Shown piece by piece: positions 79 to 55,787 of a DNA stretch of 64,000 nucleotides. The notes below the pieces were generated by a model. That model was not told where the DNA came from and made no database searches. It saw only the letters and a list, made by a program, of their open reading frames with translations. The position numbers and the translations under genes are program-made. The DNA is from an uncultured delta proteobacterium. Lineage in GTDB: Bacteria > Myxococcota_A > Polyangia > Polyangiales > Polyangiaceae. The DNA is taken from contig CAVOKF010000007.1 of NCBI GenBank assembly GCA_963696385.1, forward strand, positions 1,383,783 through 1,447,782, in the 5' to 3' direction. Positions within the stretch are counted from its first letter, which is position 1, and every line of letters begins with the position of its first letter.

Positions 79-200
79 CAATTGGACGGCACTTTCAATG
101 GCAACGGACGCTCCTAAGACGCAGATTAAGACGCGATATGTTTTCGCGCCCGCCTCCGCGGGCTCTTCGTCGACCGGCAGGCTTTGAATGGGCTACTCGC
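79..200 (+). repeat. ~110-bp IS91/ISCR oriIS-like module (M1), with an internal 12-bp duplication
   Basis: Starts CAATTGGACGGCACTTTCAATG and ends GCTTTGAATGGGCTACTCGC; aligns with 37814-37923 and 50300-50398. Confidence 0.8.
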
Positions 201-810
201 GACAACGGCGCATCCGGAGGCACGACGGGCGGTGGGACGGAGACGGCCGGAAGCGGGGGCCGGCGGCGCCACCATTACCGGGACGTTTTAAGGAACTCCC
301 CTCACCGAAGCTTCTGGCGGCACCATTGCGCAACTCATAAACACTGTGGGTACTACCCTGCAGTACGGCGGGTACGGCATGATGACCTACACGGTCGCTG
401 TCGCAATCACCAATGTACCCAACCTTTGCTCCAATGGTAGCGTCGCCGACCTCGCCAACGTCGCCGACGTACCGAGGACGACGAAGAACATTCGTTCATT
501 GGGGTTTTCCTGGCAGGGAAATTGGCCGATCGCCGCCGGTACTTATGATTATTTCAATAATGAAGTCGCCGCGAGGTTTTACGCTACCGATTCGAGCTGC
601 AATGTCTCGGTTTCCGAGATTACGGACGGCGAAGGCATGGTGACCCTGACCACCGCGAGCAGTACGTTGCTTGTCGGCACCTTCGACTTCTTGCTGTTCG
701 GTACGACTGGGTCCGACCATGTCACAGGCGCCTTCAGCGCTCCTTTCCGCGCCGCGCTTCCTTTCGGAGAGCCCGCTATGGACGGGTCGATCCTTTGCGC
801 AAGTTTCTAA
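201..810 (+). pseudogene. 5'-truncated secreted/lipoprotein-like gene (Gly/Thr linker then beta-rich domain)
   Basis: GGTTGGGT linker begins right at the module end; ORF 346-810 is a plausible globular domain with no signal peptide left. Confidence 0.55.
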
Positions 811-823
811 CTCTGGAGCATCG

Positions 824-1901
824 CTAGTGCACCGCCGTCGAGATGCGATCAAGCATTCGGCGGTGGCTCTTGATGATCGCGTTGGCCGGCTTGGTCCATG
901 CGAATGGCGTCGGGTTTGAGTTCCAACTCCGCGTGTAGGCGGCGAGATGTTCGCGGAGGCCCTTCTTGGAGGGGAAGTCCGTCTCACTCAAAGCTGCTTG
1001 CCCAGGATGCCGAAGAAGCCCTCCACCTGGTTGAGCCAGGATGCACTGGTCGGGGTGAAGTGAAAGGTCACGCGGGGATGCTGTTCGAACCAGGTCTTGA
1101 CCTCGGGAGTCGAGTGGGACGACGAGTTGTCGAGGATGACGTGAAGCTCCTGCGAAGGATAAGCGCGGTCGACCTTGTTCATGAACGCGAGGAAGTCGGC
1201 CGCGGTGTGCGATTCACTGACGCGGTGAGTTACTTTACCGGTTGCGACTTCGAGCGCCGCGTAGAGGTCGACAACGCCGTGGCGCTTGTAATCGTGCGTG
1301 CGGCGCCGCGCGCGTCCGACGCGCAAAGGCAAAGGCAGCTGCGTGCGCTCGAGGGCTTGGATCGAGGTTTTCTCGTCAACCGAGAGGACAACCGCATGCT
1401 CGGGCGGGGCCACATACAGGCCGACGACGTCCTTCACCTTCGCGACGAACTCCGGGTCGCGGCTCACCTTGTACGTCCGCGACAGATGCGGCTTCAGTTC
1501 GCATCGACGAAGGACATCGGACACGCACCCGCTCGTGAGACCGACCTGCTTGGCGAGCAGGCGCGTCGTCCAGCGACTGCGTCCCGCCGGCGGAGGCGAC
1601 ATGGCAAGCTGCACCAGGCGCTCCACTGTGTCGACAGGCACTGCGTGATCTTTGCGACCGGCCTTCGGCCGCTCGAAGATCCCTTCGACGCCCTCGCTGC
1701 GGAAGCGGGTCCGGATGCGTGATACCGCCTCGACGGACAGATCGAGACGGCGCGCATCTCACTGCTCGACACCCCTGCAGCGCTCAGCAGAATCACCCTC
1801 GCACGTCGGACAAGCCCCGCAGCCTCGGACGGCCACGCGACAATTCTCTCAAGCTCCAGGCGTTGTGCAGCATCGATCTTGACCAACGGCGTTGCGGGCA
1901 T
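824..1901 (-). pseudogene. IS630 transposase with frameshifts
   Basis: VDEKT, HDYKRHG, ILDN, SWLNQVE motifs; frame changes near 1740 and 995; stop codon uses the target TAG. Confidence 0.88.
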
Positions 1902-1953
1902 GATGCCAGAACCCGCGACGCTCGCCGTTGATTCCATCTCGACGGCGGTGCAC
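827..1953 (-). mobile_element. IS630-family element A
   Basis: Terminal IRs GTGCACCGCCGTCGAGATG / CATCTCGACGGCGGTGCAC, each end in a CTAG (TA target). Confidence 0.92.
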
Positions 1954-1955
1954 TA

Positions 1956-13735: not shown

Positions 13736-13882
13736 CGTGTCCAAAGCGGCGACCGTACGCTTCGCGCGGGGCGATGGTCCACGAGCGAGCCAGGCCGCCT
13801 CGACGGTTGAGCGAGTAGGCGCTCCAAAGCTTGTCGGCCGACGAAGAGACGCGGAAACCGCCGCGGTCACATATAACCCGTT

Positions 13883-15358
13883 CATAAGTTGGTACTTAGG
13901 GATTCGGGATGGCGCTCGCTACCACACAAGTGCGAGTGGCTCGAGGCCCATAGCGAGACGTCCGCGCTTTCGATCGCGAGCAGGATGAGCGCGGCGCGCG
14001 TTGGAATCGAGGAACTTGAGCGTTTCGGCGAGGGCACGACGTAGTTGGCGCGGCGAGTCGAGAAGGCCGCGGAGGACATCGTCGAAGTAATGCTTGCCGG
14101 ACGCGGCGGCTCGCTGGGTCGAAAGCTCCACCCCCAGCGACGCTTCCGCGAAGTGTGCGAGCGAGCGTTTCAGAAGGGCTGCGAGCAGGCTCGCCCATAT
14201 CATCGCTTTCGCGATAGCGGCCTTGCCCGTATCGAAGGCATGAAGGTTGGCGTGGGATTTGAACTCTTTGAACAGGAGTTCCACCTGCCAGCGGAGGCGA
14301 TACAAGCCGGCCACGTCGGCGGCGGAGAAGCGCTTGCGGGCGAGGTTGCTGTGCAGGTACACGAACGTCTTCGCGTTGCGCTTGCCGCGCTTGTAGATCG
14401 CCACAATTCGCCCGCGATACACGAATGAATTCGCCTGCCATTCGATGTCGAGATCGACCGTCTGGGCCGGAAGCAGGTCCCAGTTCAACTTCTGGCCGAG
14501 CAACTTGGGGATGGATTTGCCGGCGCTGTCGAAAGCGGCCCGAATGGTGGGTCGAATGTTTTTGGTTCCGCGGACGATGAAGGCGCCGCCCGCTTGGTCG
14601 ACGTCGAAAAAGAATGTTCGCTCCTCGTACCCTCGGTCGGCCAGAAAGAGCCGCTCGCGAAGACTCGCGGCCTCGGGACGGTAGGTTCGCTCGGTCTCCT
14701 TGTCGGCCGTCAGGGCGACGATGCGCACATCGTCTTGGAGCAGACTCATCGTGACGTGCAGTTCCACGGCGGCTGGCGAGATTTTCGTAAAGCGGCCCGG
14801 CCATGTGCCTTTCAAGTCGTCCTTGAGCGCGAACGACGTCCCGTCGTGAATGACGATGTCCCGAAAGGTCGACAGTTTGGGGGACACGGCGTGCAGAACC
14901 GGCTGGCTCATCTTCTGTACCGTCGCTTCCAGCAGCATCCGAAACATCTCTGGAAAGGACGCTTGCGCGAGCCGGTTGTGAAAGGGCTTATATCGCAGCG
15001 AAAGGCCCGCGAATTTCCGGAACGTCCGCAGAATATCGGCCAACCACTTGGCGTGGCCCGACCCGAGCGTGGACAGCACCGCCACGACCATCGCCAGCGG
15101 CATCACCTTGCGCACTCGCCGTAGCCAGCCGCTACGTCTCGCGATCGCGGTCACCTGCTCCTCGCCGAGTACTTCCGTAAGCCGTTTCGCATACACGCCG
15201 ACTCCGGCGCGTGTACTGTTTGATCCGTGCATCGGGGGTCTCCTTTCGCGTTGTCTCACAACAGCGTCTAGAGAATCCCCGATGCCTTTGACTATCCAAT
15301 TCGTGCACTATGCACGTAAGTGATCGAGATCACTCGGGAAATAAAGATCCTACCTATG
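13883..15358 (-). mobile_element. IS4-family element copy 1 (1476 bp)
   Basis: IRs CATAAGTTGG / CCTACCTATG; 10-bp TSD ATAACCCGTT. Confidence 0.95.
13919..15232 (-). CDS. IS4 transposase
   Basis: HDGT, ADRGY, YRLRWQVELLFKEFK (YREK); RBS AAAGGAG. Confidence 0.95.
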   Translation of the reverse strand: MHGSNSTRAGVGVYAKRLTEVLGEEQVTAIARRSGWLRRVRKVMPLAMVVAVLSTLGSGHAKWLADILRTFRKFAGLSLRYKPFHNRLAQASFPEMFRMLLEATVQKMSQPVLHAVSPKLSTFRDIVIHDGTSFALKDDLKGTWPGRFTKISPAAVELHVTMSLLQDDVRIVALTADKETERTYRPEAASLRERLFLADRGYEERTFFFDVDQAGGAFIVRGTKNIRPTIRAAFDSAGKSIPKLLGQKLNWDLLPAQTVDLDIEWQANSFVYRGRIVAIYKRGKRNAKTFVYLHSNLARKRFSAADVAGLYRLRWQVELLFKEFKSHANLHAFDTGKAAIAKAMIWASLLAALLKRSLAHFAEASLGVELSTQRAAASGKHYFDDVLRGLLDSPRQLRRALAETLKFLDSNARRAHPARDRKRGRLAMGLEPLALVW

Positions 15359-15469
15359 ATAACCCGTTAGGGGCTTCCGCCGTCGCTGTAATGGCGAACC
15401 GATTTGAACAGATCCAAAGCGCACGTCGCCCGCGCGGCGCCGCATCAGCGCGCCGCAATCGGGGCTCGT

Positions 15470-15800
15470 CGTTCCAGGCGAGCTGCAGCTCGAGTTGATC
15501 TGGCCGCTCGGCGTCTTCTGCGTCGGTTGGGTCGCGCGCCCGGGTGACGGGCGGCGCCTCGGTCGGCAGGCCGAGATGGGCGAGGATCTGGCGCACGGGC
15601 TCGCGCTCGGTGATCACGGCGAGCACCCGCAGTCGGCCGTGGCACTTCGGACATTGCAGAACGTCCACGTCAAAGGTCCGTTTCAAGAGCGTGGGCCAGT
15701 CCACGCGAGGGGAGGCCGCGTAGATGGCGCCGCCAAGCAGCCGTTCCCAGTGGCTGACAGCAAGCACATTGGGCGTGAGCGGGATGACCTCGCTCCGATG
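15470..15800 (-). pseudogene. IS91-family (Y2 HUH) transposase C-terminal remnant
   Basis: DWPTLLKRTFDVDVLQCPKCHGRLRVLAVITEREPVRQILAHLGLP. Confidence 0.8.
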
Positions 15801-15811
15801 CGCGTTGAGCG

Positions 15812-17635: not shown

Positions 17636-17775
17636 GACGCTCGAACACGCCCATTTTCGTGCCATGCTCATGCGACTGGATTTCACGGCGAAAGCCGTTC
17701 GCCTCGGGTGCCCCGGTCATGTCCGGGGGGTGACGCGGCCACCGCCGCAATCAGCCCCGCTGGAAGGGGGCCTTC

Positions 17776-32220: not shown

Positions 32221-32222
32221 CT

Positions 32223-37813: not shown

Positions 37814-37923
37814 CAATTGGGACGGCGCTTTCAATGACAACGAGCGCCCCAAAGGCCTTTTATGTGACCGCGGCGGTTTCCGCGTCTCTTCGTCGGCCGA
37901 CAAGCTTTGCGCCGCCTACTCGC
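37814..37923 (+). repeat. oriIS-like module M4 (native end of the IS91 remnant)
   Basis: Identical to 52953-53062. Confidence 0.9.
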
Positions 37924-37932
37924 CCCCGCCTT

Positions 37933-38041
37933 GGCCGGTCGGGAATTTCACCCGCGGACGGTTACGTGAGGTTTCCGCTCTTACATGTCTTCCTCCTCAC
38001 CCAGGCTTCGCCTGGCGCACTTGAAAGCGCCGTCCCAATTG
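37933..38041 (-). repeat. Divergent module M5, head-to-head with M4
   Basis: First 21 nt identical to M4 (CAATTGGGACGGCGCTTTCAA); far end GCGGGTGAAATTCCCGAC. Confidence 0.65.
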
Positions 38042-38055
38042 ACCGCCCGTCGCAT

Positions 38056-39829: not shown

Positions 39830-40570
39830 CGTACCGGGTCCAGGTGCAAATGCACTATGTGGCGGGGTCGCATCCGCAATATAGTCAAGATGCAGGCCGC
39901 CAAGCACCGGAAATCGGACGACCTTCCCGTCGCTGGGGCGCACGGCGGGCACAGGCGTCTGCCGGCGGAGGCCCTGGTGAGGGCGTGCGGCGTTGAAGTA
40001 GCGGATGTACTCGGCGACCACGCGGTGGTGCAAGTGCCGGTCGTCAAGCACCAGGATGTGGTCGAGGCACTCGCTACGCAGCGAGCCGAGAAAGCGTTTG
40101 CAGATGGCGTTCATGTTGGGGCCGCGCACCGCCGTGTGGATCACGCGGAGGCCGGTGGCAAGGGCCAGCGCATCAAGGGCGGTCCCAAACTTGTCGTCTC
40201 GGTCGGGAATCAAGAACTTCGGTGCCACGCCGAGGGGGGTCGCGTTACGAAGCGGCTGCGCGACCCATGCCTGTGACTGCATAGGCGTCGTTGCGGCGAA
40301 CACGACGTTGCGCGTGGCCAGTTCGATGAACACGAACATGAAGATGGGCGGAAGAACAAGTCGTAGGCTTACAAGAATCGCAAGCCCAGACGTCGCACGC
40401 GTGGTTTCGCAGAAACGTGGACCGGCGCTGCCCCCAGGCGGATGCGGTCGCGCCGCGCGCATGTACTTCTGCACCGTGCGCTTGCTGGCTTTGATTCCGA
40501 GCTTGCTCATTCTCCGCGAATCCTCTCCGCACCCCAAGCAAGTTTTCACGCGCCATCGAGCGGATCAGCG
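39830..40570 (-). pseudogene. rve/integrase-core transposase relic
   Basis: KLGIKASKRTVQKY, DRDDKF, PNMNAIC.RF.GSLR.ECLD, YFNAARPHQGL; frameshifted. Confidence 0.85.
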
Positions 40571-40688
40571 CCCTAATGGAGCCGCATCCCCCGCACGGGC
40601 GCAGCTGCCTCAGCAGTGACGAATTCCCGCGACTCAAGTGTTGCCGCGTGGCAACACTTCAATCCTCAGCGTGTGGTACGGTGGGGGC

Positions 40689-40886
40689 ATGTCGACGTCT
40701 GGGGGAGGGCACGAACTCGGGCACGCTGCGGCGGATGCGGTCGAGCTGGCGGTCCGACAGCTAAACGCCGTTTGCAGGCGCGCGACTTTGGAATTCGCGC
40801 TTTCGGTCGGTAAGGTCGTCCTTGACCGCATCTACGAAGGCGACCTGTCGCTGTTGCGAAGCCGAAACCCGCACAAGCAGGCGTCG
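40689..40886 (+). pseudogene. Hypothetical gene truncated by module M6
   Basis: Helical N-terminus runs straight into the module. Confidence 0.55.
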
Positions 40887-40995
40887 GTGAATAGGAAGTC
40901 CAAAGGCCGTCGACCGACGAAGAAACGCGGCGACCGCCGCAGTCACGTAGAACGGGGTAGGGCGTTCGTTCTCACTGCACCGGCGAACCGATTTG
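40887..40995 (-). repeat. oriIS-like module M6
   Basis: 109 bp identical to 41912-42020 and 55679-55787; rc ends GGCCTTTGGACTTCCTATTCAC. Confidence 0.92.
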
Positions 40996-41014
40996 GCGAC
41001 CGTCCACGCGAGGA

Positions 41015-41711
41015 TTCTTCCGTTCAGTGCGACGAGATCTGGTCGTTCGTAGGCGCGAAGGACAAGAACGTCCTTCCGGACGAAGCTGGCTTTGGAACCG
41101 GCTCGGTCTGGACGTGGACCGCGATCGACGCGGAATCGAAGCTCGTCGCAGCGTATCACGTCGGAGACACGCGACGCGGGATGCGCGTACGAGTTCATGC
41201 AGGACCTGGCCTCGCGCATCGCTACGCGGATCCAGCTCACCAGGGATGGCCATAAGGCGTACATCAGCGCGGTCGCCGATGCGTTCGGGCCTGGCGGCAT
41301 CGATTACGCAATGCTCGTGAAGCTGTATGGTGAGGTACCGCCTGGCGCCGCGCGTTACTCGCCAGCACAATGCATCGGCGCGAATTTGACGCCAATCGCA
41401 GGCGAGCCGGAGATGCAATACGTGTCGACGTCCCATGTCGAGCGGCAAAACCTGACGATGCGCATGTCGATGCGCCGTTTCACGCGATTGACCAACGGCT
41501 TTTCAAAGAAGGTCGAGAACCTCGGCCACGCTGTCGCGCTGCATTTCATGCACTACAACTTCTGCGGCATCCACCAGACTCTGCGCGTGACGCCTGCGAT
41601 GGTTGCTGGACTCGCCGACCACGTGTGGGAACTGAGCGAACTAATCGCGCTCATGCCGACGCCGATCGCGAAGGCTGGGGACGCGTCAAGCGGGCCGCCG
41701 CGACCGCGTAG
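41015..41711 (+). pseudogene. IS1-family transposase, N-terminally truncated and frameshifted
   Basis: QCDEIWSFV, WTWTAID, STSHVERQNLTMR..RFTRLTNGFSKK, TPAM. Confidence 0.85.
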
Positions 41712-41754
41712 CGGTACCATTGCGCTGCGCTCGGCTGCGCTTCAGCATGGGGCC

Positions 41755-41911
41755 ATGAAAAACTTATCTTGGATCGTTCTTATCCTCGCCGACTTCTGCA
41801 TCCCATTCCTCGGAGCAGGCTGCAGCACCGGCCCCTGCGGATCTGGCTCGCACCCCTACGGTGCTTGCCCCGGAGAGACGCTTCCCAACTCGTGCCCCGG
41901 CGAATCTGACG
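41755..41911 (+). pseudogene. Lipoprotein N-terminus truncated by module M7
   Basis: MKNLSWIVL...GAGC then the module. Confidence 0.6.
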
Positions 41912-42020
41912 GTGAATAGGAAGTCCAAAGGCCGTCGACCGACGAAGAAACGCGGCGACCGCCGCAGTCACGTAGAACGGGGTAGGGCGTTCGTTCTCAC
42001 TGCACCGGCGAACCGATTTG
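41912..42020 (-). repeat. oriIS-like module M7
   Basis: Identical to M6 and M10. Confidence 0.92.
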
Positions 42021-42235
42021 AGTAGAGGACGGCCGCCACAGCCGCCAACCGCTCTGCGCGCTCCGGCGCGCCCGGCGTCTCGAAGGGGATGTCCTCCGCG
42101 GCAACGCGGTTCTTGGCCCTTGTGATCGGCTGCTCCATCGCGACGTCGGTCACCAGGAACGCGCGCGCGATCTCCGGGACGGTGAGGCCGCAGACGATCC
42201 GCAACGCGAGAGCGATCTGCTGGGTGGCGAGAGGG
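42021..42235 (-). pseudogene. Internal fragment of an ECF sigma factor (region 4 plus start of a DUF6596-like domain)
   Basis: ALALRIVCGLTVPEIARAFLV...ITRAK...RLAAVAAVLY. Confidence 0.8.
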
Positions 42236-42412
42236 CGAGAATGTGCGCCGTACTCGGGCTCGAACCGTGGCTTCTTGCGCGGTTCGATATGTTGTTTCGG
42301 CAAACCGAAGCAAACGCTGAAGACGAGAGACGAGTCGCGCGCGCCTGTCGAGCCGAGCGTCGCCGGTCCTTGCGCTTGATCTCGACTCACGGCACATTGG
42401 TCAGCAAGGGAA

Positions 42413-43726
42413 ATGTTCCAAAGGCGGGTGCGGGTGATCACGGCCGCGATCTGGGTCGTTGCCGCCTTGGATGAATGCGGAGGACGAGTCGAGCCGAATG
42501 GCGGCACGTCGGCGTCGGAGTTGGAAGGCGGCGTGCTCGGCCAGAGCGTGGCAGTCAGCTCGACCCAAAGCAGTTCGGGCGCCACCGAGGCCGGTTCAAG
42601 CGGTTCCTCGGTCACGATCGTTTCAGGCGTAAACGAAGCCAGTTCAAGCGCTTCCAGTTCGAGCGCTCTCAGTTTGGGTCCGTCGACTTCGAGTCGTTCC
42701 TCCGGTCCAGCAATCATCCCACCCAGCTGCCAGGTGGGCGGGCCGGGAATGACCGATTGCGGACCCGGGGGAAGCGGCAGCGAGAGCTGCTGCATGAGCT
42801 TGGAGGTGACGGGCGGGACCTATTACCGAACCTACGATGAACCGATCGTGATCGGCACGCCCGACGGCGGTCCGACCCTCGCCGCCGACGGAGGTCCCGC
42901 CGGGTTGGCCGACCCGGCGACGGTGAGTGGACTGCGCCTGGACAAGTATCTCGTGACGGTGGGACGGTTCCGGCAATATGTTAGCTATTTAATGGGCCCT
43001 ACGGGGGCGCCACCCGCGAACGGCAGCGGCATCCATACGCACTTGAGTGGGGGCCTTGGACTGGCCAACAGCGCAAGCTCGGCGACGTACGAGACGGGCT
43101 GGGACGCGGCGGACTGGAACACGCAAATCGGAGCGGGGGCCCGCGCGGCGGGCACATGGAACACGAACCTGGCGTGTGGGGCGCCGGTCTTCCTGTCCAA
43201 CGACACGTGGACGAGCACGGCGGGCGGTCAGGAGAACCTTCCGATCAACTGCGTGACTTGGTATGAGGCGTACGCGTTCTGTATTTGGGACGGGGGCTTT
43301 TTGCCGAGCGAAGCGGAGTGGGAGTACGTGGCGGCGGCGGGAAGCCAGCAGCGTGAGTATCCGTGGGGCTCGACGGATCCGGGGACTGCGAACCAATATG
43401 CGATTTACCAAGACTATTATACGGCCAATCTCACCCACATCGCACCGGCGGGAACGGCGACACTGGGAGCGGGTTACTGGGGTCAACTGGATATGGCGGG
43501 GGAAGTCTGGGAATGGGCCTTGGATTGGTACATGCCCTACGTGAATCCGTGCACAGATTGCGCCTTTGTTCCGATATCCTCCGTACCAGGAAACCCGAAC
43601 CGGGTGATCCGGGGCTGCTCCTGGGGGAACGGTCCGGCAGGCCTCTTGCTGCCCCCTTGGCGCGACCAGATCGACCCGGCGACGCGCAGCGTTTCCACGG
43701 GGTTCCGGTGCGCGAGGACGCCCTGA
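42413..43726 (+). CDS. Exported FGE-sulfatase (SUMF1-like) domain protein
   Basis: LDKYLVTVGRF, PINCVTW, LPSEAEWE, YPWG, DMAGEVWEW, GFRCAR. Confidence 0.92.
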   Translation: MFQRRVRVITAAIWVVAALDECGGRVEPNGGTSASELEGGVLGQSVAVSSTQSSSGATEAGSSGSSVTIVSGVNEASSSASSSSALSLGPSTSSRSSGPAIIPPSCQVGGPGMTDCGPGGSGSESCCMSLEVTGGTYYRTYDEPIVIGTPDGGPTLAADGGPAGLADPATVSGLRLDKYLVTVGRFRQYVSYLMGPTGAPPANGSGIHTHLSGGLGLANSASSATYETGWDAADWNTQIGAGARAAGTWNTNLACGAPVFLSNDTWTSTAGGQENLPINCVTWYEAYAFCIWDGGFLPSEAEWEYVAAAGSQQREYPWGSTDPGTANQYAIYQDYYTANLTHIAPAGTATLGAGYWGQLDMAGEVWEWALDWYMPYVNPCTDCAFVPISSVPGNPNRVIRGCSWGNGPAGLLLPPWRDQIDPATRSVSTGFRCARTP

Positions 43727-45267: not shown

Positions 45268-45274
45268 CAACCTA

Positions 45275-45368
45275 GTACCTCGATTCCGCGGAATGGAAGG
45301 GTCGTTTTCCGCGATATTCCCGACGGGATCGGGTCGTCTCACCCCTCCGTTTCATGGAATCGGGGTAC
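45275..45368. mobile_element. 94-bp MITE of the IS630-B type
   Basis: GTACCTCGATTCCGCGGAATGGAAGGGT...GAATCGGGGTAC between CTAGs; matches the ends of 1956-3150. Confidence 0.85.
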
Positions 45369-45608
45369 TAGAGCTTCAGCGGCGCCTTTAGAGTGATCCA
45401 CTTCTGGCGACCGAAGTGATCCACCCGTCGCCGGGGTCGGGGTGGCGGCAGCGGCGGGATCGTGACCCACCCCTGGCTATCGGAAAGGGCGCGCGTCAGG
45501 GCCGGTGGCTCACCCCGAGGTGCTCGGCCGGGCGAAGGGGGGAACCGCCAAGACGCCGGTAGGACTCGCGAGCGCTCGGGCTCGCGGCTCAGCGTGGGAG
45601 TCCGGCTA

Positions 45609-45923
45609 TCAGAAGGAGTTGTCGTCCGTGGGATCGTGCGCGGGTGGCATTGCCGCTTCGCGGACGGCGTGGCGGTAGCGCCAGAGCGTTTCGCGCAAGG
45701 TGGCGGCCCTGCGGCAGATCGTGTGGGCGAGGAAGACGACAGGGCCTTGGTCGCGTGGCCTATGGAAGTCGTCGATGAGCGTCTGGTGCTCGGCCAAGAG
45801 CGCGTCGGCAGCGAGGTCGAGCGCGTGTTCGAGCAAAATGATGGAGGCGAGCTCCGGCGCGACGACGAGGTCCGGGACGCGGGGCGGAGGCGGAGCGGGT
45901 GGAACGCGGCGCGTGCGCTTCAC
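45609..45923 (-). CDS. Small accessory protein coupled to istB
   Basis: GTGA overlap with the istB stop; helical ORF. Confidence 0.6.
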   Translation of the reverse strand: MKRTRRVPPAPPPPRVPDLVVAPELASIILLEHALDLAADALLAEHQTLIDDFHRPRDQGPVVFLAHTICRRAATLRETLWRYRHAVREAAMPPAHDPTDDNSF

Positions 45924-46783
45924 GGCGCCGTCGCCCGAGTGGGTGCGACCGGCTTGCCGGCACGCTCGGCAGCGACGTGCTGGCGGTAGCTCGGTCCGTC
46001 GATGTCGATACGAATGGCATGCATGGCGAGCCGATCGAGAATGGCGGCGGCGACGGTCGCGTCTCCCAGGTAGCGTCCCCACTGGCGCAAATCGATATTG
46101 GAGGTGACCGCGGTCGAGAGCTTGCCGTGCCTGCGATCGACGAGGTTGAAGAGAGTATGGGCGGCGGTGGGCTCGTCGTCGCGCTGGCGCACCTGCCCCA
46201 GGCCGACGTCGTCGATGACGAGCAGGTCGGGTCGTGCCCAGGCCTTCAGGCGTCGGGGGTAGGTGCCGTCGGCGAGGCCGGCGTGCAGATCGGCGAGCAG
46301 GTCGACGCACCGCGCGTAGCGCAGGGAGATGCCCTGCACGCAGGCGCGCAGGGAGAGGGCCTTGAGGATGTGACTCTTGCCGGTGCCGCTCTTTCCCGTG
46401 ATGACCAGGTCGTCGTGGCGCCCGACGAAGTCGAGGCGGGCGAGCTCCAGCACGAGGCTCTTGTCGATCGAGGGTTGAAAGTCCCAGTCGAAGGCCTCGA
46501 GTGTCTTTTGCTCGACCAGGCCGCTGACCCGGATACGCCGGTCCAGGCGTGCGGCCGACTTGTGATCGACCTCAGCGGCCAGGACGTGCTCGAGCAGGGC
46601 GGTGTGTCCGGGTCGCTCGCGGGTGGCCCACGCGAGCCAGTCGTCGAGCGTGGAGAGCGTATGGGAGAGGCCCAAGTAGCCGAGGTGCCGGCGCAGGCGC
46701 TCGATCACCACGACGGCCTCGTCAGAGGCCGGGCCGGTCACCCGGTCATTGGAGTCTGGTTTATCCGTTTTGGTCTTGGCCAT
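45920..46783 (-). CDS. istB: IstB AAA+ helper ATPase
   Basis: LEAFDWDFQP, GKSGTGKS, LVIDDVG, TSN, ILDRL, GPSYR. Confidence 0.93.
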   Translation of the reverse strand: MAKTKTDKPDSNDRVTGPASDEAVVVIERLRRHLGYLGLSHTLSTLDDWLAWATRERPGHTALLEHVLAAEVDHKSAARLDRRIRVSGLVEQKTLEAFDWDFQPSIDKSLVLELARLDFVGRHDDLVITGKSGTGKSHILKALSLRACVQGISLRYARCVDLLADLHAGLADGTYPRRLKAWARPDLLVIDDVGLGQVRQRDDEPTAAHTLFNLVDRRHGKLSTAVTSNIDLRQWGRYLGDATVAAAILDRLAMHAIRIDIDGPSYRQHVAAERAGKPVAPTRATAP

Positions 46784-48336
46784 CGGCGGTCTCCACGGGG
46801 CGGCGGGTGGCGAGCGGCAGAGCGTCGTACTCGGCCAGATCGCGGGGGCGTGTGACGACGGGACCGAGCGCGTCATCGATGCGCTTGGCGGTGTCTTCGG
46901 CGACGTACTCGTCGAGGGTCCGGGGCGGAGCGCGTTGGGCAAGGATGCGTTCGACAGAGGCCGCGTCGAGCGCGCCGAACCGAACGGCGTGCGCGAGGGC
47001 GGCGTCGACGTCGGCGCTGTCGTAGCGGGCACGCAAGACCAGGATCTGCCGGGCGTGGTGGGTCCAGACACGGGTCACGTGGGCGCCCGAGAGCTGGAGC
47101 AGGAACGCGGCGGCCCCGTCGCCCATCTGCTCGAAGGTGGCGCGCAGCTTGTCGACGTCGATGGGCGACCGGCTCTCTGGGCGAGGATGCAGCCCGAGCG
47201 GGTCGATCTTGTCGCCGCGTCCGCGCGGTCGCAGCTCATAGCGCGCCAGGCAAGCGAGATTCGGCCCGTAGACGAACAGCTCCGTCTGCGTGATGCGCAG
47301 CGGCAGGAAGTCGGTCACATGGTCGTACGGCACGGCGTAGCGGTTACCGAGCCATTCGACGTACCCGTCGATGCTGCAGAGTCGATACGTGACCCGGGCG
47401 GTGTCGTACGGATGCTTGGGCAGCGGCCGCAGGTGAGGCGCCTCGTCGCGAAACCAATCGAGGGCGGACAGCCCGTGACGCTTGCGCGGGTCGACGACGC
47501 GAACGAGCCAGTCGGCGAGCTGCGCGGCGAAGTCGTCGCGATCGCGGAAATGAGCGGCCGTTGAGAAACGACCGCTCGTGCTCCCAGAAGCTGCGCTCGA
47601 CGCGCGGCTTGGCGTTGGGTTTTCCTCGCACGGCGGCGGGCTGAATGCCGTAGTGCGCGGCAAAGGCGAGATACCGAGGATTGTAGATGGGCTGGTGGCC
47701 TTCCCACCGGAGCACGACGGGCTTTTGGCTGTCGTACTTGCAGCCCGCGGCGCAGCCGCCGAAGCGCGCGAAGGCGCGCTCGTGGCCGTCCATGAGCGCG
47801 AACAAGTCCGGCGAGCCGAAGACGTCGAAGGACTTGCGCTTCGAATAGACCAGGACGTACGAGAACAGCTGCACAGTCTCGGAGAGGCCGGTCGTATACG
47901 TGAGCGTGTAGGGCGACCAATCGTTTTCGGCCATCTCACCCGGTCCGAACACCGGAGCTTCGAGGCTCGGCGTCGGCTTGGCCGCTGGCCGCACGCGCCG
48001 CATCTGCTTCTTGACGGCGGTGTAGCCGCCTTGGAATCCCTCGTCCTTGAGGATCTCCAGCACGCGCTGCGCGGTGATGTCCGGGTAGCGCGCGAGCAAC
48101 TCGCTCACGCGACCCTGGTAGGCGTCGATCTTGCGGGAACGCGGCGCGCGCACGGGCGCAGCGGCCAGCGCGGCGTGCCCGTCGTCGCGCTCGCGACCGT
48201 GGGTCCGAAGGATCTTCTTGATCGTGTTCCGACTGACCCCCAGCGCCCGCGTGATGGCGCGCCGGCTCATCCCCTGGGCCGTCAACACGACGACCTGGTG
48301 GATCAACTCCTCGCGAGAGCGCCAGTGCGCCGTCAT
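46761..48336 (-). CDS. istA: IstA transposase, frameshift near 47550
   Basis: HTH N-terminus, GGYTAVK, ENDWS, YDSQK, KPRVER, C-terminal DGYV..NRYAVP. Confidence 0.88.
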
Positions 48337-49223
48337 GGGACGCCCGCTCTCTCGGTCACGGAGGTGATCGTTTTCATCAGGCCGCCCAGCACGCCATGGA
48401 GGTTGCTGAGATCGGGGCCAACGATGTCCGCGGCGGGTCCCAACGCGGCGAGCGGCATCCCGGCCAAACAGGCTTGAAGTCGCCCCGCGCTCCGTCGAAT
48501 GGTCGCCACGTCGAGCGCGATCGTCTCGGCGATGCTCCTTGCCATGCGTGGGCGGCCGCGGCGCGCAGGCCGACCCCCGTCGCGCCAGCGCGCCAGCACC
48601 GCCTCATGCCCCGGCCCCGAGTCGTCCGCGAGCTCGCGCACCAAGAGGGCCGTCTGCCGCACGGTGAGCCCGCGACGGATGACGACCGCGGAGACCGCCG
48701 GCTGGTTGCCACGTGGCAACGCGCCGACGAGGATCGCTGCCCGCGGCGCGAGCAGCCCGAGTCGAACGTCGGCTTGGACCGACGAATCGAGCGCTTCGAC
48801 CAGCATCAGGCGGCGACAGACCCAGCTCTTGTGGCAACGAAGCAGCGCAGCGATCGCCCCTTGCGTCACGTGATGCTCTCGATGCAGGGCGCGCACGATC
48901 CACGCCTCCTCGAGCGCGGTGAGCCCGCGGCCAGCGTGCAGCTCGCGCATCTGCACGGTGGCATCGACGGCGCCAAGGTCGGTGACGACGGCGCGCAGAT
49001 CGCGAAGGCCCAGCCCTCGCGCGGCGCGTAGCCGCTTGAAGCCGTCGAAGATCTCGACGGCGCCATCCCGCTCGAACGCGCGCACGGCGGAGAGCTGGCC
49101 GTGCTGCTTGAGCGACGCGCGCATGGCGGCCAGCGCGCAGGCGTCGGCGAGGCGCAGCCGCGACAGGCCCTCGCCGAGATCGGCGACGGCGACGAGGCGC
49201 TCGGCTTGAGCAGCGGCGGTCAC
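48333..49223 (-). CDS. ParB/Srx N-domain plus HTH protein
   Basis: SLKQHGQL, IFDGFKRLRAA, LTALEEA, TQGAIAALL..KSWVCRRL; overlaps the istA start. Confidence 0.85.
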   Translation of the reverse strand: MTAAAQAERLVAVADLGEGLSRLRLADACALAAMRASLKQHGQLSAVRAFERDGAVEIFDGFKRLRAARGLGLRDLRAVVTDLGAVDATVQMRELHAGRGLTALEEAWIVRALHREHHVTQGAIAALLRCHKSWVCRRLMLVEALDSSVQADVRLGLLAPRAAILVGALPRGNQPAVSAVVIRRGLTVRQTALLVRELADDSGPGHEAVLARWRDGGRPARRGRPRMARSIAETIALDVATIRRSAGRLQACLAGMPLAALGPAADIVGPDLSNLHGVLGGLMKTITSVTERAGVP

Positions 49224-49246
49224 GGCCGCGAATCCACCACGACTCG

Positions 49247-49717
49247 TCACCCGGCACGAGACCGGCCCGTGACGCTGTCCAGGTCCAGGCCCGATCGGCA
49301 GCCGTTTTCCCCAGCTTCCAGCGCGCAGGGTAGCTCGTGACATAGGCCCGCTCTGTCCACTTTGGCGGGCCCAAAAGGGCCGATTTTCCGCAGAATTCGC
49401 CCCAGATCGCGGCGGAGGGTAGCTCGTGACAGGCTCGCGGCCTTGTCCACGATCTGCTGTACTTTACGCAATAAATCCACGCTGTTGCCGTCCGAGGGTA
49501 GCTCGTGACATCCGGCTGCCTTGGCGCCGTCCCGGCGCCTTTGCTGGCGTGCGCGCTCGTCGGCCCGCTGCTCGTCCAGGTCGTTGCGCCGCCTCCGGCG
49601 CGCCTGACGGTTGCGGCGCTGGCCGCGGCACCCCTCTCCGCACACAACTTGGTGATCGAGCGCGCTCACGGCAGGTGTGAACCACTTCCGGCACTCGCTG
49701 CATCGACGCCTGGACAT
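49247..49717 (-). CDS. Small Zn-ribbon / Arg-rich protein
   Basis: CSEC...CGEGC then an Arg-rich helix. Confidence 0.6.
   Translation of the reverse strand: MSRRRCSECRKWFTPAVSALDHQVVCGEGCRGQRRNRQARRRRRNDLDEQRADERARQQRRRDGAKAAGCHELPSDGNSVDLLRKVQQIVDKAASLSRATLRRDLGRILRKIGPFGPAKVDRAGLCHELPCALEAGENGCRSGLDLDSVTGRSRAG
49327..49510 (+). repeat. 3x perfect 16-bp AGGGTAGCTCGTGACA
   Basis: At 49327, 49416 and 49495. Confidence 0.9.
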
Positions 49718-50069
49718 CGACGCCAGCGTCCGGCGAGACGCCCTCGATCGCGCATTCCACGGCGCCCCCCTGGATCACGATCCCGCCGCCCGCGGGCACC
49801 CCTTCAGGCCGGGCCGTGGATCACGATCCCGCCGTGCAGTGGATCACGACGAGGGCGCCGCTGAAGTACTAGAGCGTCGGGAAAGAGCCTTTGAATCGTG
49901 GGTTCCCCCGCCGATGGCACAGTCGAAGTGGCGCAACATGGGCGCAACTGTCGCGGGGCTCGCCCCGTTGTTCCGTTCCGCGCGTCGTGTCGAGTGCGAC
50001 GGTTTCCCACTCGCGTCGAGCGCTGTCCAAGCGGGAGCCGAGGTGATCACCCTTGCGCGCCGGGAACTT

Positions 50070-50300: not shown

Positions 50301-50398
50301 TCGACAAGTGCGTCGGTCGACGAAGAGCCGCGGAAGCGGGCGCGGAAACATATCGCGTCTTAGGGGCGTTCGTTATCGCTGAATCGGCGAACGATTTG
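50300..50398 (-). repeat. Module M8 (ori end eroded)
   Basis: GTCGACGAAGAGCCGCGG..ACATATCGCGTCTTAGGGGCGTTCG..GAACGATTTG. Confidence 0.75.
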
Positions 50399-50737
50399 GC
50401 TCACTCCGGGTGCTCGCCGTGACCACCGAGCGCGAACCCGTCCGCCGATCCGTGGCCATCTGGCCTACCGACCGAAGCATCGCCCGTTGCCCGGGCGCGC
50501 GATCCGACCGGCGATGCAGACCTCGTCGAACTGAACGACCGTCGTCCACGCACGCGAAGATGCCCCATGCCGCTTCGGCACGCCATAACGTCTCTTCGTG
50601 CAGCGCTTACTCCGCGGATGCATCCGATGATTCCGGCTCGCAACCTACGGTGTCCTGTGCCACGAGAGCGCACCGCCATTCACCCGCACCCGCACAACTG
50701 CACATGTAATATTGTCGTGGCCATTGTAGTGGCCCTT
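50352..50737 (+). repeat. 386-bp direct repeat, copy 1 (includes a degenerate IS91 tail at about 50404-50535)
   Basis: Identical to 52214-52599. Confidence 0.95.
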
Positions 50738-52213
50738 CATAAGTTGGTACTTAGGGATTCGGGATGGCGCTCGCTACCACACAAGTGCGAGTGGCTCGAG
50801 GCCCATAGCGAGACGTCCGCGCTTTCGATCGCGAGCAGGATGAGCGCGGCGCGCGTTGGAATCGAGGAACTTGAGCGTTTCGGCGAGGGCACGACGTAGT
50901 TGGCGCGGCGAGTCGAGAAGGCCGCGGAGGACATCGTCGAAGTAATGCTTGCCGGACGCGGCGGCTCGCTGGGTCGAAAGCTCCACCCCCAGCGACGCTT
51001 CCGCGAAGTGTGCGAGCGAGCGTTTCAGAAGGGCTGCGAGCAGGCTCGCCCATATCATCGCTTTCGCGATAGCGGCCTTGCCCGTATCGAAGGCATGAAG
51101 GTTGGCGTGGGATTTGAACTCTTTGAACAGGAGTTCCACCTGCCAGCGGAGGCGATACAAGCCGGCCACGTCGGCGGCGGAGAAGCGCTTGCGAGCGAGG
51201 TTGCAGTGCAGGTACACGAACGTCTTCGCGTTGCGCTTGCCGCGCTTGTAGATCGCCACAATTCGCCCGCGATACACGAATGAATTCGCCTGCCATTCGA
51301 TGTCGAGATCGACCGTCTGGGCCGGAAGCAGGTCCCAGTTCAACTTCTGGCCGAGCAACTTGGGGATGGATTTGCCGGCGCTGTCGAAAGCGGCCCGAAT
51401 GGTGGGTCGAATGTTTTTGGTTCCGCGGACGATGAAGGCGCCGCCCGCTTGGTCGACGTCGAAAAAGAATTTTCGCTCCTCGTACCCTCGGTCGGCCAGA
51501 AAGAGCCGCTCGCGAAGACTCGCGGCCTCGGGACGGTAGGTTCGCTCGGTCTCCTTGTCGGCCGTAAGGGCGACGATGCGCACATCGTCTTGGAGCAGAC
51601 TCATCGTGACGTGCAGTTCCACGGCGGCAGGCGAGATTTTTGTAAAGCGGCCCGGCCATGTGCCTTTCAAGTCGTCCTTGAGCGCGAACGACGTCCCGTC
51701 GTGAATGACGATGTCCCGAAAGGTCGACAGTTTGGGGGACACGGCGTGCAGAACCGGCTGGCTCATCTTCTGTACCGTCGCTTCCAGCAGCATCCGAAAC
51801 ATCTCTGGAAAGGACGCTTGCGCGAGCCGGTTGTGAAAGGGCTTATATCGCAGCGAAAGGCCCGCGAATTTCCGGAACGTCCGCAGAATATCGGCCAACC
51901 ACTTGGCGTGGCCCGACCCGAGCGTCGACAGCACCGCCACGACCATCGCCAGCGGCATCACCTTGCGCACTCGCCGTAGCCAGCCGCTACGTCTCGCGAT
52001 CGCGGTCACCTGCTCCTCGCCGAGTACTTCCGTAAGCCGTTTCGCATACACGCCGACTCCGGCGCGTGTACTGTTTGATCCGTGCATCGGGGGTCTCCTT
52101 TCGCGTTGTCTCACAACAGCGTCTAGAGAATCCCCGATGCCTTTGACTATCCAATTCGTGCACTATGCACGTAAGTGATCGAGATCACTCGGGAAATAAA
52201 GATCCTACCTATG
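50738..52213 (-). mobile_element. IS4-family element copy 3
   Basis: Same IRs and length; flanked by the 386-bp repeat instead of a 10-bp TSD. Confidence 0.95.
50774..52087 (-). CDS. IS4 transposase
   Basis: 2 aa differences from copies 1 and 2. Confidence 0.95.
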   Translation of the reverse strand: MHGSNSTRAGVGVYAKRLTEVLGEEQVTAIARRSGWLRRVRKVMPLAMVVAVLSTLGSGHAKWLADILRTFRKFAGLSLRYKPFHNRLAQASFPEMFRMLLEATVQKMSQPVLHAVSPKLSTFRDIVIHDGTSFALKDDLKGTWPGRFTKISPAAVELHVTMSLLQDDVRIVALTADKETERTYRPEAASLRERLFLADRGYEERKFFFDVDQAGGAFIVRGTKNIRPTIRAAFDSAGKSIPKLLGQKLNWDLLPAQTVDLDIEWQANSFVYRGRIVAIYKRGKRNAKTFVYLHCNLARKRFSAADVAGLYRLRWQVELLFKEFKSHANLHAFDTGKAAIAKAMIWASLLAALLKRSLAHFAEASLGVELSTQRAAASGKHYFDDVLRGLLDSPRQLRRALAETLKFLDSNARRAHPARDRKRGRLAMGLEPLALVW

Positions 52214-52599
52214 ATCGCGTCTTAGGGGCGTTCGTTATCGCTGAATCGGCGAACGATTTGGCTCACTCCGGGTGCTCGCCGTGACCACCGAGCGCGAACC
52301 CGTCCGCCGATCCGTGGCCATCTGGCCTACCGACCGAAGCATCGCCCGTTGCCCGGGCGCGCGATCCGACCGGCGATGCAGACCTCGTCGAACTGAACGA
52401 CCGTCGTCCACGCACGCGAAGATGCCCCATGCCGCTTCGGCACGCCATAACGTCTCTTCGTGCAGCGCTTACTCCGCGGATGCATCCGATGATTCCGGCT
52501 CGCAACCTACGGTGTCCTGTGCCACGAGAGCGCACCGCCATTCACCCGCACCCGCACAACTGCACATGTAATATTGTCGTGGCCATTGTAGTGGCCCTT
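52214..52599 (+). repeat. 386-bp direct repeat, copy 2
   Basis: Identical to 50352-50737. Confidence 0.95.
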
Positions 52600-52952: not shown

Positions 52953-53062
52953 CAATTGGGACGGCGCTTTCAATGACAACGAGCGCCCCAAAGGCCTTTT
53001 ATGTGACCGCGGCGGTTTCCGCGTCTCTTCGTCGGCCGACAAGCTTTGCGCCGCCTACTCGC
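52953..53062 (+). repeat. Module M9
   Basis: Identical to M4 but with no transposase attached. Confidence 0.92.
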
Positions 53063-53420
53063 ACCTCCCGCGCTTCGCTCATTGCCTTGTCGAACTGACC
53101 GCTCTCGCGCAATGCGGCGACGAGCAGAGTCCGCGCCGTGAGCGCCCCCGGGTGGTTCCGGACGAAATCGGCGAGGCCCTTCGCGGCGAGGGGGTATTCG
53201 CCACGGCGTCTGCGGACTTCGGCCAAGGCCACGGCGATGTCCTGAACGTCCGGAGCCGGCGACTGGGCGATCGTGAGCTCGTCCTCGGCCCCCGCGAGAT
53301 CTCCAGCGTTGGCCAGGACGATGCCCAAATCGTAGCGCGCTTCCCACAGAGTGCCGTCGACCTGAATCGCCGCGCGCAGAAGTGCCACGCTGCGGTCTGT
53401 GTCCTTGCGGGGAGCGTGCG
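53063..53420 (-). pseudogene. Internal fragment of a TPR protein (GltE/AglT-like)
   Basis: WEARYDLGIVLANAGDLAGA...; cut by M9. Confidence 0.7.
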
Positions 53421-53547
53421 TAGGAGGGCGATTCCTGAAGCGGGATCCGTGTCTCTGGGGGGCGGAGAGGGCGACGGGGTAAGGCTGCCGGGGGGGACGA
53501 AAGTTTAGGGTTGCGTTCTATCGCGTTGCGCGGTACGTGTCGCGCTC

Positions 53548-54423
53548 GTGGAAGCGGTACTTCGGCATAGGGGACGCGCAGTCGACACGGACGATGTCGC
53601 GTTTGTGCGAGAGCTGATCGCGCAAAACCCGGGAGCGAGTCGTCGGGCGCTGTCGTTCAAGATTTGCCAGGCATGGGGGTGGGCTCAGCCCAATGGGATG
53701 TGGTGCGACGCGATTTGCCGTGGGCTGATGCTGCGACTGCACCGGGAAGGCCATGTGGAGCTGCCTGCGGCGCGATGGCGAAGCAAGCAGCCCCGTCGCC
53801 ACGCGGTGGTGCAGCACATTGAGGTCCGCGTCGCCCCGCTGGTGGCGCGTCTTGCGGATCTCGGGCCACTGGACATCCGCCAGGTTCGCCGCACGCCGGA
53901 GGAGACGCTGGTCAAGTCTCTCGTCGAGCAGCATCACTACCTGGGCTACGCGCATCCGGTCGGCGAGCACCTTAAGTACCTCGTGTCCGCCGGAGGGCGA
54001 CCGATCGCGTGTTTCTGTTGGTCGTCGGCGGCGCGCCATCTGGGGCCACGCGATCGATACATCGGTTGGTCCAAGGAGCAGCGAAAGGCCCAGATTCGCT
54101 TGGTCGCCTACCAGAGCCGATTTCTCATCCTGCCGTGGGTCGAGGTGCCGCACCTGGCGTCGCATCTGCTCGGCGCGATCTCGCGCAGGCTGTCGGACGA
54201 TTGGCAGCAGGTCTACGGGCATCCGATTTACTTTACGGAGACATTTGTCGATCCGACCCGTTTTCGCGGCACGTGTTACCGCGCCGCCAACTGGACGGTT
54301 CTCGGGATGACCGCCGGCCTCGGCAAGGACGCTCGCGGCTCGATTCCCAATCGTTCCCTCAAACAGCTGTTCGGATATCCGCTGGTCGGCGACTTCCGAA
54401 AACGCCTGCTCGGTGGGTACTGA
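53548..54423 (+). CDS. DUF4338 (DruA-like) protein
   Basis: HHYLGY, RDRYIGW, RFLILPWV, ETFVD..F.GTCYRAANW. Confidence 0.9.
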   Translation: MEAVLRHRGRAVDTDDVAFVRELIAQNPGASRRALSFKICQAWGWAQPNGMWCDAICRGLMLRLHREGHVELPAARWRSKQPRRHAVVQHIEVRVAPLVARLADLGPLDIRQVRRTPEETLVKSLVEQHHYLGYAHPVGEHLKYLVSAGGRPIACFCWSSAARHLGPRDRYIGWSKEQRKAQIRLVAYQSRFLILPWVEVPHLASHLLGAISRRLSDDWQQVYGHPIYFTETFVDPTRFRGTCYRAANWTVLGMTAGLGKDARGSIPNRSLKQLFGYPLVGDFRKRLLGGY

Positions 54424-54424
54424 C

Positions 54425-55678
54425 GTGGATCGCACGCCCGTCCGTGACGTCGACCTGAACGACCTGCCGCCGATGCTGGAGCGCATCCGGGCGGTCGTCT
54501 GTGACGACGACTACCACCTCATCGAAGCGCTTGCGACGACCGTGATCGAGACGACCCGCGAGCTGCGCAAGACCCACGCCACGCTGACGCGGGTGCGGCG
54601 CCTCTTCGGACTCACGGGCAATGAGAAGACCGCTCACATCAAGGCCGACGTGGCCAACCCTGCGTCGCAGACGGCCCATCCGGCGGTCGAGCCGCAAGAC
54701 GCGCCCGCGAGCGATCCCAGCGCCACCCCCGCGGCCGCGGCGAATGCGCCGGAGCCATCGGCGCCCCCCACGAAAGAAAAGCGCAAGGGTCACGGACGCG
54801 TGCCCGCCTCCGCCTATCGCGCGGCGCAGCACGTCACCGTGGATCACGAGTCGCTGCGGCGGGGAGACTCGTGCCCGCTCTGCACACAAGGCCGTGTCTA
54901 CGAGCTGGCCGCCCCCGCGACCCTCGTTCGGATCGTCGGGCGGGCTCCGCTGGGGGCCGCCTGCTTTCACTGCAAGCAGCTTCGCTGCGGCGCCTGCGGC
55001 CACGTGTTCACCGCTCGTCCGCCGCCCGAGGCCCAGGGAGAAAAGTGCGACGAGTCCGCCAGCAGCATGATCGCCGTGATGCACTACGGCGCGGGCGTTC
55101 CCTTCCATCGACTCGAGAAGCTCCAGGACAATCTCGGTACGCCCGTTCCTGCGTCGACCCAGTGGGATGTCCTGCGCGATCGCGTCGATCGGGTCGAGCC
55201 GGTCTACAAGGAGCTCAAGCGCATCGCCGCCCAGGCCGAGCTCTTGCACGTCGACGATAGCCACATGCGCATCTTGAGCCTCATGGGCAAGCGCCGCGCC
55301 GACTTGCTCGCGAAAGGAACACTCGAGGCTCCCGAGCGCACGGGCTTGTTCACGACCGCCATCGTCTCGATCCTCGCGTCACTCGGCGTCATCGCGCTAT
55401 TTTTCACGGGGCGAAAGCATGCGGGAGAAAACCTCGCCGAGCTGCTGAAACAACGAGCCCCAGACCGGCCTGTCCCTCTGCTCATGAGCGATGCCCTTTC
55501 GCGCAACGTCCCCGACGGCCATGACGTTATCGAGATCAATTGCATCTCCCACGGGCGACGCAAGGTCGTCGACGAGGTCGCCAACTACCCCGACGAGTGC
55601 CTCGCGCTTCTCGAGCGGCTCGCGGCGGTTTACAAGGTCGACCACGACTGCAAAAAGCAAGGCCTCTCGGACGACGAG
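54425..55678 (+). pseudogene. tnpC: IS66 TnpC truncated by M10
   Basis: KGHGR, CPLC, PFHRLE, HVDDS, RKHAGENL, MSDA, HGRRK. Confidence 0.88.
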
Positions 55679-55787
55679 GTGAATAGGAAGTCCAAAGGCC
55701 GTCGACCGACGAAGAAACGCGGCGACCGCCGCAGTCACGTAGAACGGGGTAGGGCGTTCGTTCTCACTGCACCGGCGAACCGATTTG
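55679..55787 (-). repeat. Module M10 (attached to an IS91 tail)
   Basis: Identical to M6 and M7. Confidence 0.92.

Follow-up and report, generated by a model that had tools for sequence, protein, structure and literature searches.

What a short repeat is doing where unrelated DNA segments meet is the question raised by a 64,000-nt stretch of the genome of an uncultured delta proteobacterium of the Polyangiaceae (hereafter the window; contig CAVOKF010000007.1, here G000:C7:1383783-1447782; 65.5% G+C). A preliminary description of this DNA reported a ~110-bp module at about ten gene junctions, likened it to oriIS, the origin end of IS91-type insertion sequences (ISs), and proposed that it belongs to a rolling-circle system which stitches foreign segments together in trans. 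The analysis presented here indicates that the module is probably the oriIS end of an IS91/ISCR-type IS that is released as a precise mini-element of 109-110 nt, copies of which now stand at seams between unrelated DNA.

The parent insertion sequence and its origin end

The window contains only 3′ tails of the transposase gene and no intact copy. Elsewhere in the genome, a PF04986 search located uninterrupted frames of 585, 578 and 532 aa on contigs C6 and C4 and a split copy on C2, so the intact IS91/Y2 transposase that the preliminary description suggested looking for is present, in three frames that all lie outside the window. A 567-aa transposase has the N-terminal zinc-binding domain and the HUH-Y2 domain by which members of the IS91/ISCR family are recognized (Pfam Zn_Tnp_IS91 and Y2_Tnp, E 3e-17 and 2e-23, respectively). 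Its best NCBIfam model is ISCR clade Ia (E 4e-84), but the scores fall below the curated cut-offs, so this enzyme is best considered a distant member of the family; it is 32-38% identical to the transposases of plasmid-borne IS91-family elements, ISVsa3 and ISCR1 (35.5% for ISCR1).

As previously described, three module copies in the window adjoin IS91-type transposase tails. The tail at 15404-15804 (- strand) is 90% identical to 37412-37816, matches positions 444-487 of NCBIfam ISCR_clade_Ia (E 7e-7) and by tblastn is 91% identical to residues 454-567 of the intact copy. The 3′ third of the gene at 37191-37813 (+) is 86% identical to a full-length copy on C4 (tblastn, 84-88% to residues 383-567 of the intact transposase), and the tail at 55788-56051 (-) is 84% identical to 15393-15669. 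A module follows every transposase 3′ end that was seen, six in this genome and four of four in the relatives examined, and in the full-length copies the final 109 nt are collinear with it. These copies align as far as the outer end of the module and not beyond, which indicates that the outer end is the end of the IS.

The identity of this end was assessed against ISCR right ends, which were located by comparing copies of ISCR1 and ISCR-like elements in different plasmid contexts. On the sense strand these elements end in ...TTTATACTTCCTATACCC and ...GTTTGAACTTCCTATACGCA, respectively, and the module type represented by the window copy M6 ends in ...CCTTTGGACTTCCTATTCAC, which is identical at 16 of 18 nt to the ISCR-like end (NZ_CP050735.1), a score equalled by none of 2000 shuffles. 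The M6 type thus carries the conserved terminal motif expected of an oriIS downstream of a transposase gene, and the end motif cited in the preliminary description is borne out by real ISCR ends. By homology and position, therefore, the outer end is oriIS, and sequence comparison supports the module being the oriIS-bearing right end of an IS91/ISCR-type element.

At the other side of the IS, no module-like start was found upstream of the transposase gene, where the only modules were inverted ones interrupting two copies. Upstream of the transposase, full-length copies are also accompanied by a 156-aa open reading frame (ORF), possibly part of the IS, with weak ribbon-helix-helix or RelB-like matches (L002 377-847; G000:C4:35795-36265) that is far more diverged between copies than the transposase.

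Two exact edges and their conservation in the genus

When the genome was searched with an nhmmer profile built from five variant sequences, 88 module matches were found, of which 39 are complete and 32 distinct. Of the complete copies, six are preceded by a transposase tail and one more by just ~26 nt of the native upstream box, and the rest are solo copies; together they cluster in IS-rich stretches at contig ends. The shared inner break point noted in the window (Y|CAATT or Y|CAAAT) recurs across the genome, where C directly precedes AAAT or AATT in 41 of 46 distinct inner flanks, and one position further out the base is C in 22 and T in 21 of the 46. The outer edge, CTACTCGC (CTATTCAC in the M6 type), is followed by C in 42 and by T in 17 of 63 distinct flanks. 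Both edges are exact genome-wide, and the inner boundary is not ragged. By these bases, each junction lies directly 5′ of a C on the gene sense strand. On the complementary strand, the one transferred by IS91, this corresponds to a position 3′ of a G, and we infer that this G parallels the CTTG and CTCG sites described for IS91 (PMC13181058).

These edges bear on the proposal that solo modules are passive remnants, left over from full-length copies after deletions and other IS insertions and themselves immobile. Truncated IS copies (IS4, IS66, IS21, IS630 and IS3) abound in the region, and IS4 elements do insert in the module, which 15 of 31 IS4 ends abut. However, random decay would give ragged inner ends, whereas a single edge is shared by 41 of 46 flanks and is found again in four other lineages, and identical copies occupy unrelated contexts, all of which makes this explanation very unlikely. 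Complete (100%) identity to a native module, of one of three types, is seen in seven solo copies; seven further solo copies are at least 94.6% identical, and one is 99.1% identical to a fourth native type. These identities are what shedding that occurred repeatedly, from several parental IS lineages, would leave.

In native copies, a GC-rich palindrome followed by GTGCGCTTTGGATGTGGT, or by a sequence close to it, lies directly upstream of the module. This box, G[T/C]GC[C/T]TTG..., resembles the first half of the origin but lacks the terminal half, and the two ends of the module are not inverted copies of each other. A possible homology of the inner end to terIS, the terminating end of such elements, which has a subterminal palindrome, looked suggestive in a MAFFT alignment and was rejected when a shuffle test gave no support; in one module type the inner end has a 6-bp palindrome. 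Also dropped was a top-strand model in which the inner end is the origin and the outer CTCG the terminus; it had been prompted by the CTCG terminus of IS91 (PMC13181058), and the homology of the outer end to the ISCR oriIS spoke against it.

The same arrangement is found in other members of the genus. The transposase clade was present in 20 of 30 other genus genomes searched, a tally in which the unpublished genome G010 is counted; nothing else here relies on that genome. The DNA after the transposase gene was read in four relatives, at 93%, 69%, 68% and 68% protein identity. The box recurs in all of them and is followed by T|CA and by a unit that ends in CCTAC(T/C)C(G/T)C. The unit is 109, 109, 110 and 110 nt long in the four relatives, and its interior has diverged heavily. 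To search each relative for solo units, 60 nt of transposase tail plus the relative's own unit were used as the query, so that the predicted edge is position 61. The three solo copies in the relative G044, all 100% identical, start at this position, as does the single one in G011; in G012 two copies start at 61 and one at 55; and in G006, which also has a 32-nt fragment, two of eight copies start at 61 and six at 51-59, that is, 2-10 nt earlier. Six solo copies from the relatives have six unrelated flank pairs, each with a C before CA. When the whole module was used as a single BLAST query against 31 genus genomes, only G000 and G003, a close relative represented by an independent assembly, gave matches. 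This query undercounts the family because diverged versions exist in G044, G011, G012 and G006; the narrow result is due to sequence drift, and the layout itself is not missing. These comparisons indicate that the clade as a whole has conserved a defined second site, located one unit-length inside the origin, which is no accident of one genome. As the edge and layout are kept in four other lineages, the best reading of this site is as a second built-in point of cutting or termination.

An alternative placement of the parent's end would make the module an independent small repeat and a target, with the IS ending at the inner edge and inserting beside it. Two features are in keeping with this: the box just upstream of the inner edge resembles the first half of the origin, and the edge tetranucleotide read on the other strand (TTTG/ATTG) is close to the CTTG target given for IS91 (PMC13181058). 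Yet the full oriIS-like terminal motif lies at the outer end, the upstream box is without its terminal half, no transposase 3′ end occurs without a module, and the module diverges in step with the transposase while staying 109-110 nt long. We therefore consider it quite unlikely that the module is a target and continue with the module as the right end of the IS.

Module copies and the seams around them

In the window, the profile matches the module at nine places, one of them partial and new to the list, with E-values down to 1e-31, which puts the repeat far beyond chance. Besides that partial copy, the profile matches span 79-199, 13812-13925, 37815-37922, 40888-40995, 41913-42020, 50306-50398, 52954-53061 and 55680-55787. 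Eight of the ten copies first listed belong to the family. The two that fail are M3 (19260-19369), which is unique in the genome, gives no profile match with filters off and E up to 100, and has only 6-9 nt in common with the module at each tip; and M5 (37933-38041), which shares only a 21-nt inner tip with M4, inverted, and belongs to a separate 122-bp repeat with four copies (37924-38045, -). This 122-bp repeat has sharp ends and may be another mini-element of a related IS.

Among the family members, M1 (79-200, +) is a complete solo module (nhmmer profile 2-109, E 6e-25) that an insertion of 12 nt in its interior lengthens to 122 bp, and no paralogue of either of its flanks was found in the genome. 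The copy listed as 13811-15406 (M2) is one module split by a 1.48-kb IS4-family element. Its outer half, with the oriIS end (13811-13876, -), is 94% identical to 37858-37923 and is cut off where the IS4 end abuts module position ~44; its inner part (15363-15406, -), to the right of the IS4 element, matches module profile 2-40 and is shared with 52217-52260. M4 (37814-37923, +) and M10 (55679-55787, -) are in native position, and the outer edge of M10 truncates an IS66-family transposase gene. The reported identities both hold: the solo M9 (52953-53062, +) is identical to M4 over 110 bp, as are two copies on C4, and the solo M6 (40887-40995, -) and M7 (41912-42020, -) are 100% identical to M10 over 109-111 bp. 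M8 (50306-50398, -; profile 2-94) is without its outer ~15 nt, and its break, which adjoins an inverted CTACTCG-type end, is common to four copies. Inverted relative to M8 is a diverged fragment of transposase tail (50399-50737, +), which lies within a 386-bp direct repeat around the third IS4 copy of the window. The partial copy (52214-52260, -; profile 2-48) comprises the inner 47 nt of a module at the right end of that IS4 copy.

The DNA on the two sides of these modules is unrelated. For the outer flank, 13 loci have a paralogue that continues past the junction point into DNA absent from the module's other side, four inner flanks have paralogues that behave likewise, and none of the 17 informative junction sides fits a simple insertion. 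Flanks that rejoin into one gene were not seen, and a paralogous empty site exists for none of the 39 complete copies, so the copies are, as had been argued, no clean MITE insertions (MITE, miniature inverted-repeat transposable element). For example, the inner edge of M7 cuts an ECF-sigma-like gene within a segment of 3.25 kb; in the counterpart at C6:101989-105244, which has 99.5% identity, this gene runs on. The outer edge of M7 adjoins 470 bp of DNA with a second copy at C7:101472-101941. In addition, one breakpoint between G003 and G000 was traced, and its other side is absent from G003.

Seams of this kind could be artefacts if the assembly were chimeric at the repeat. The genome is an eight-contig assembly of an uncultured organism, and public short-read contigs break at module edges: among the contigs of four runs covering 40400-42600, no record has at least 31 letters on both sides of a module edge, the contigs stopping at the repeat, so that they neither support nor refute the window junctions. 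On the other hand, a 109-bp repeat is short for long-read assemblies, and G003 independently reproduces module loci with both flanks, in one stretch of 2408 bp at 99.96% identity with three module matches and another of 3035 bp at 99.4% with one. This agreement for four module matches argues against wholesale assembly error and leaves chimeric joins an extremely unlikely source of the seams.

A more substantial competitor is the dedicated capture system first suggested for this locus, in which solo modules are portable origins with the capture and joining of foreign gene pieces as their main effect, an idea also put forward for ISCR elements. Besides the lack of simple insertions on any informative side, several loci would suit such a system. 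A 337-bp internal fragment of a TPR gene (53061-53397), whose full gene is at C7:1073820-1076589, begins exactly at the outer edge of M9 and ends in GGTC; an 863-bp gene plus module occurs at two loci with 92.4% identity and different outer flanks; and a G003 module lies at a breakpoint that has no module in G000, beside 1055 bp that are 100% identical. However, this gene plus module is the only recurring cargo unit among 32 solo copies, and the 337-bp fragment is on the flank left behind in transfer of the IS91 type. The relative orientation of neighbouring modules (31 same, 23 opposite) is not clearly biased, on which ground an organization as cassette arrays was also rejected. Seven of the 32 distinct modules are mosaics whose inner and outer halves are each at least 95% identical to a different partner, a pattern suggesting that copies simply recombined with one another. 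The contigs of the four public runs on 40400-42600, which stop at the repeat, gave no circle junction, and deletions and miniatures of this kind have already been described for IS801 (PMC3189936 and PMC6354349). The evidence for true pick-up of cargo is thin, and ordinary routes (one-ended transposition, IS801-type deletions and recombination between copies) can account for the unrelated flanks. Hence, of the claim that the module has two precise sites and stitches segments together in trans, the two exact edges stand; a dedicated stitching system does not follow from these data, and we regard it as unlikely.

The modules are embedded in a graveyard of mobile DNA that includes IS630, IS4 (three copies), IS66, IS21 and IS3 elements, serine and tyrosine recombinases, and fragments of a coupling protein, ParB and a relaxase. 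The three IS4-family copies are 99.6-100% identical (13882-15362, - strand, the one within M2, NCBIfam transpos_IS4_1 E 2.5e-53; 32222-33702; and 50737-52214). BLAST places this 1.48-kb element at 20 sites in the genome, and its preferred target is the module centre, with the abutting ends at module positions ~40-46; at one module locus shared by the two assemblies it is present in G003 and absent in G000. The third copy, which is flanked by the 386-bp perfect direct repeat (50352-50737 and 52214-52599), has mismatched flanks and looks like the product of recombination between two IS4 copies. Where the IS91 tail at 15404-15804 begins, a large serine recombinase gene (15408-18608; Resolvase, Recombinase and zinc-ribbon domains) is missing the first ~43 positions of its catalytic-domain profile. 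A 4.5-kb repeat at 45373-49872, with IstB/IS21-like, Mu-transposase-like and ParB-like genes, occurs at 98-99% identity in at least six other places in G000, and G003:C113 has its flanks joined without the repeat, that is, an empty site. Adjoining it is a different repeat of ~100 bp (45271-45371) with about 30 near-identical copies spread over all contigs. There are also six tandem copies of an 18-bp unit within a long ORF (25129-25271), an ORF amid IS debris with a DruA (Druantia) domain match (53509-54420; E 5e-32), and small DUF433/DUF5615 and PIN-domain ORFs that are probably toxin-antitoxin pairs (26738-27718 and 29708-30172).

A proposed mechanism, its relatives and its significance

A second origin serves as a terminator in rolling-circle plasmids, and an origin-like box at the inner edge of the module could work in a similar way. 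In the mechanism we propose, the transposase would nick oriIS on the strand opposite to the gene and displace 109-110 nt, ending at the inner site instead of the distant left end; the box would provide an efficient early stop, so that the unit is shed, and the resulting short single strand or circle would then be inserted elsewhere. Solo modules would be immobile alone, but because each keeps a usable-looking origin, transposase supplied in trans could start one-ended events from them, with read-through and adjacent deletions. Recombination between near-identical copies would add to these events, and modules would be left at seams between unrelated DNA.

Precedents come from IS91 and IS801. 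After the IS91 transposase has nicked oriIS, displacement of the bottom strand proceeds towards terIS; insertion takes place via a single-stranded circle, and termination fails in 1-10% of events (PMC13181058). With IS801, termination at internal tetranucleotides produced right-end miniatures of 229, 360 and 679 nt in 26% of trapped events (PMC3189936); any ori801 fragment can be mobilized in trans and can make deletions (PMC3189936, PMC6354349); and one-ended transposition yields deletions with one border fixed at ori801, so that every copy is a recombination site (PMC6354349). A stronger form of our proposal holds that the site 109-110 nt inside the origin is a programmed second cutting site, and that transposase bursts shed origin-bearing circles which seed new origins and, with transposase in trans, drive deletions, joins of gene fragments and occasional gene pick-up; this is a possibility that we advance only tentatively.

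Several observations weigh against release of the module as a mini-element. When the 150-bp flanks of the 39 complete copies were searched in the genome, only self-matches were returned, and G003, with 15 module loci compared with G000, offers no empty site, as shared loci have the module in both assemblies and others have no counterpart. With no empty site found, movement as a unit is what we infer from the copies, and it was not observed. The inner end has no significant similarity to an ISCR-like terIS, with 412-1642 of 2000 shuffles reaching the same score. Single-strand DNA folds of four types on both strands have z values of -1.2 to +0.4 relative to shuffles, and RNAalifold gave no consensus fold for 32 modules or for eight sequences from five lineages. 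Module types other than M6 have no individual significance against the ISCR origin and are tied to M6 by the module alignment only. The GTTC/CTTG tetranucleotide was not seen next to oriIS in the 63 distinct outer flanks, which have no consensus after the first base and agree with CTTG only in its last base (G, on the other strand). Finally, the left end of the full-length element was placed from only two independent contexts. As an alternative to the order of events proposed above, the unit may have originated by deletion from its parent and only afterwards have inserted at the parent's origin nick.

Among known systems, the IS801 miniatures of Pseudomonas syringae are the closest, being IS91-family pieces that keep the origin end, stop internally, move in trans, and act in deletions and as recombination sites. 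The module likewise combines a constant origin end with an internal stop within the parent IS, here as read from sequence alone. The differences are that the IS801 pieces were caught in trap assays and have several lengths, those of 360 and 679 nt having no fixed copies in that genome (PMC3189936, PMC6354349), whereas the module has one fixed length of 109-110 nt in five lineages, tens of fixed copies and a conserved origin-like box at its inner edge. ISCR1, ISVsa3/ISCR2 and their relatives provide the closest transposase models (35-36% identity), have the same terminal oriIS motif downstream of the gene and are associated with unrelated DNA beyond the origin (PMC6218425); according to the same paper, no ISCR element has been shown to transpose. 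Unlike the module, their right ends (232-245 bp after the gene) have no solo 110-nt units in the ends examined, a comparison in which the hosts were not searched, and the host of the module is an environmental myxobacterium with no resistance genes involved. Laboratory mini-IS91 (terIS-marker-oriIS) also lacks a transposase, has one terminating and one initiating end and is moved in trans as a bottom-strand circle, but it is a man-made construct with ends of 89 + 82 bp (PMC13181058), and the inner end of the module has no significant similarity to terIS.

More distant parallels exist among other small elements. Non-autonomous Helitrons are, like the proposed mini-element, short rolling-circle derivatives that keep their ends and sit beside gene fragments, but they are eukaryotic and use a Rep-helicase enzyme. 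Classical bacterial MITEs are also short, non-coding, multi-copy and IS-derived; in contrast to these, the module has no terminal inverted repeats and its flanks do not rejoin. In this context, right-end miniatures of the IS91 family and origin fragments that can be mobilized in trans are already known from IS801, and the new features are the single fixed length across five lineages, the conserved origin-like inner box and the tens of fixed copies. No description of a fixed-length, multi-copy mini-element derived from IS91 was found in full-text searches, which do not cover subscription journals.

How IS91/ISCR transposases recognize where to stop is poorly understood, and two exact sites 109-110 nt apart, kept while the interior drifts, constitute a small natural substrate for tests of initiation and termination by Y2 enzymes. 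The distribution of the module also shows how a single IS can scatter portable origins by the tens through a genome, where they then mark, and possibly make, the seams of rearrangements. If the second site is indeed programmed, soil myxobacteria would contain a natural and measurable ISCR-like shuffling system.

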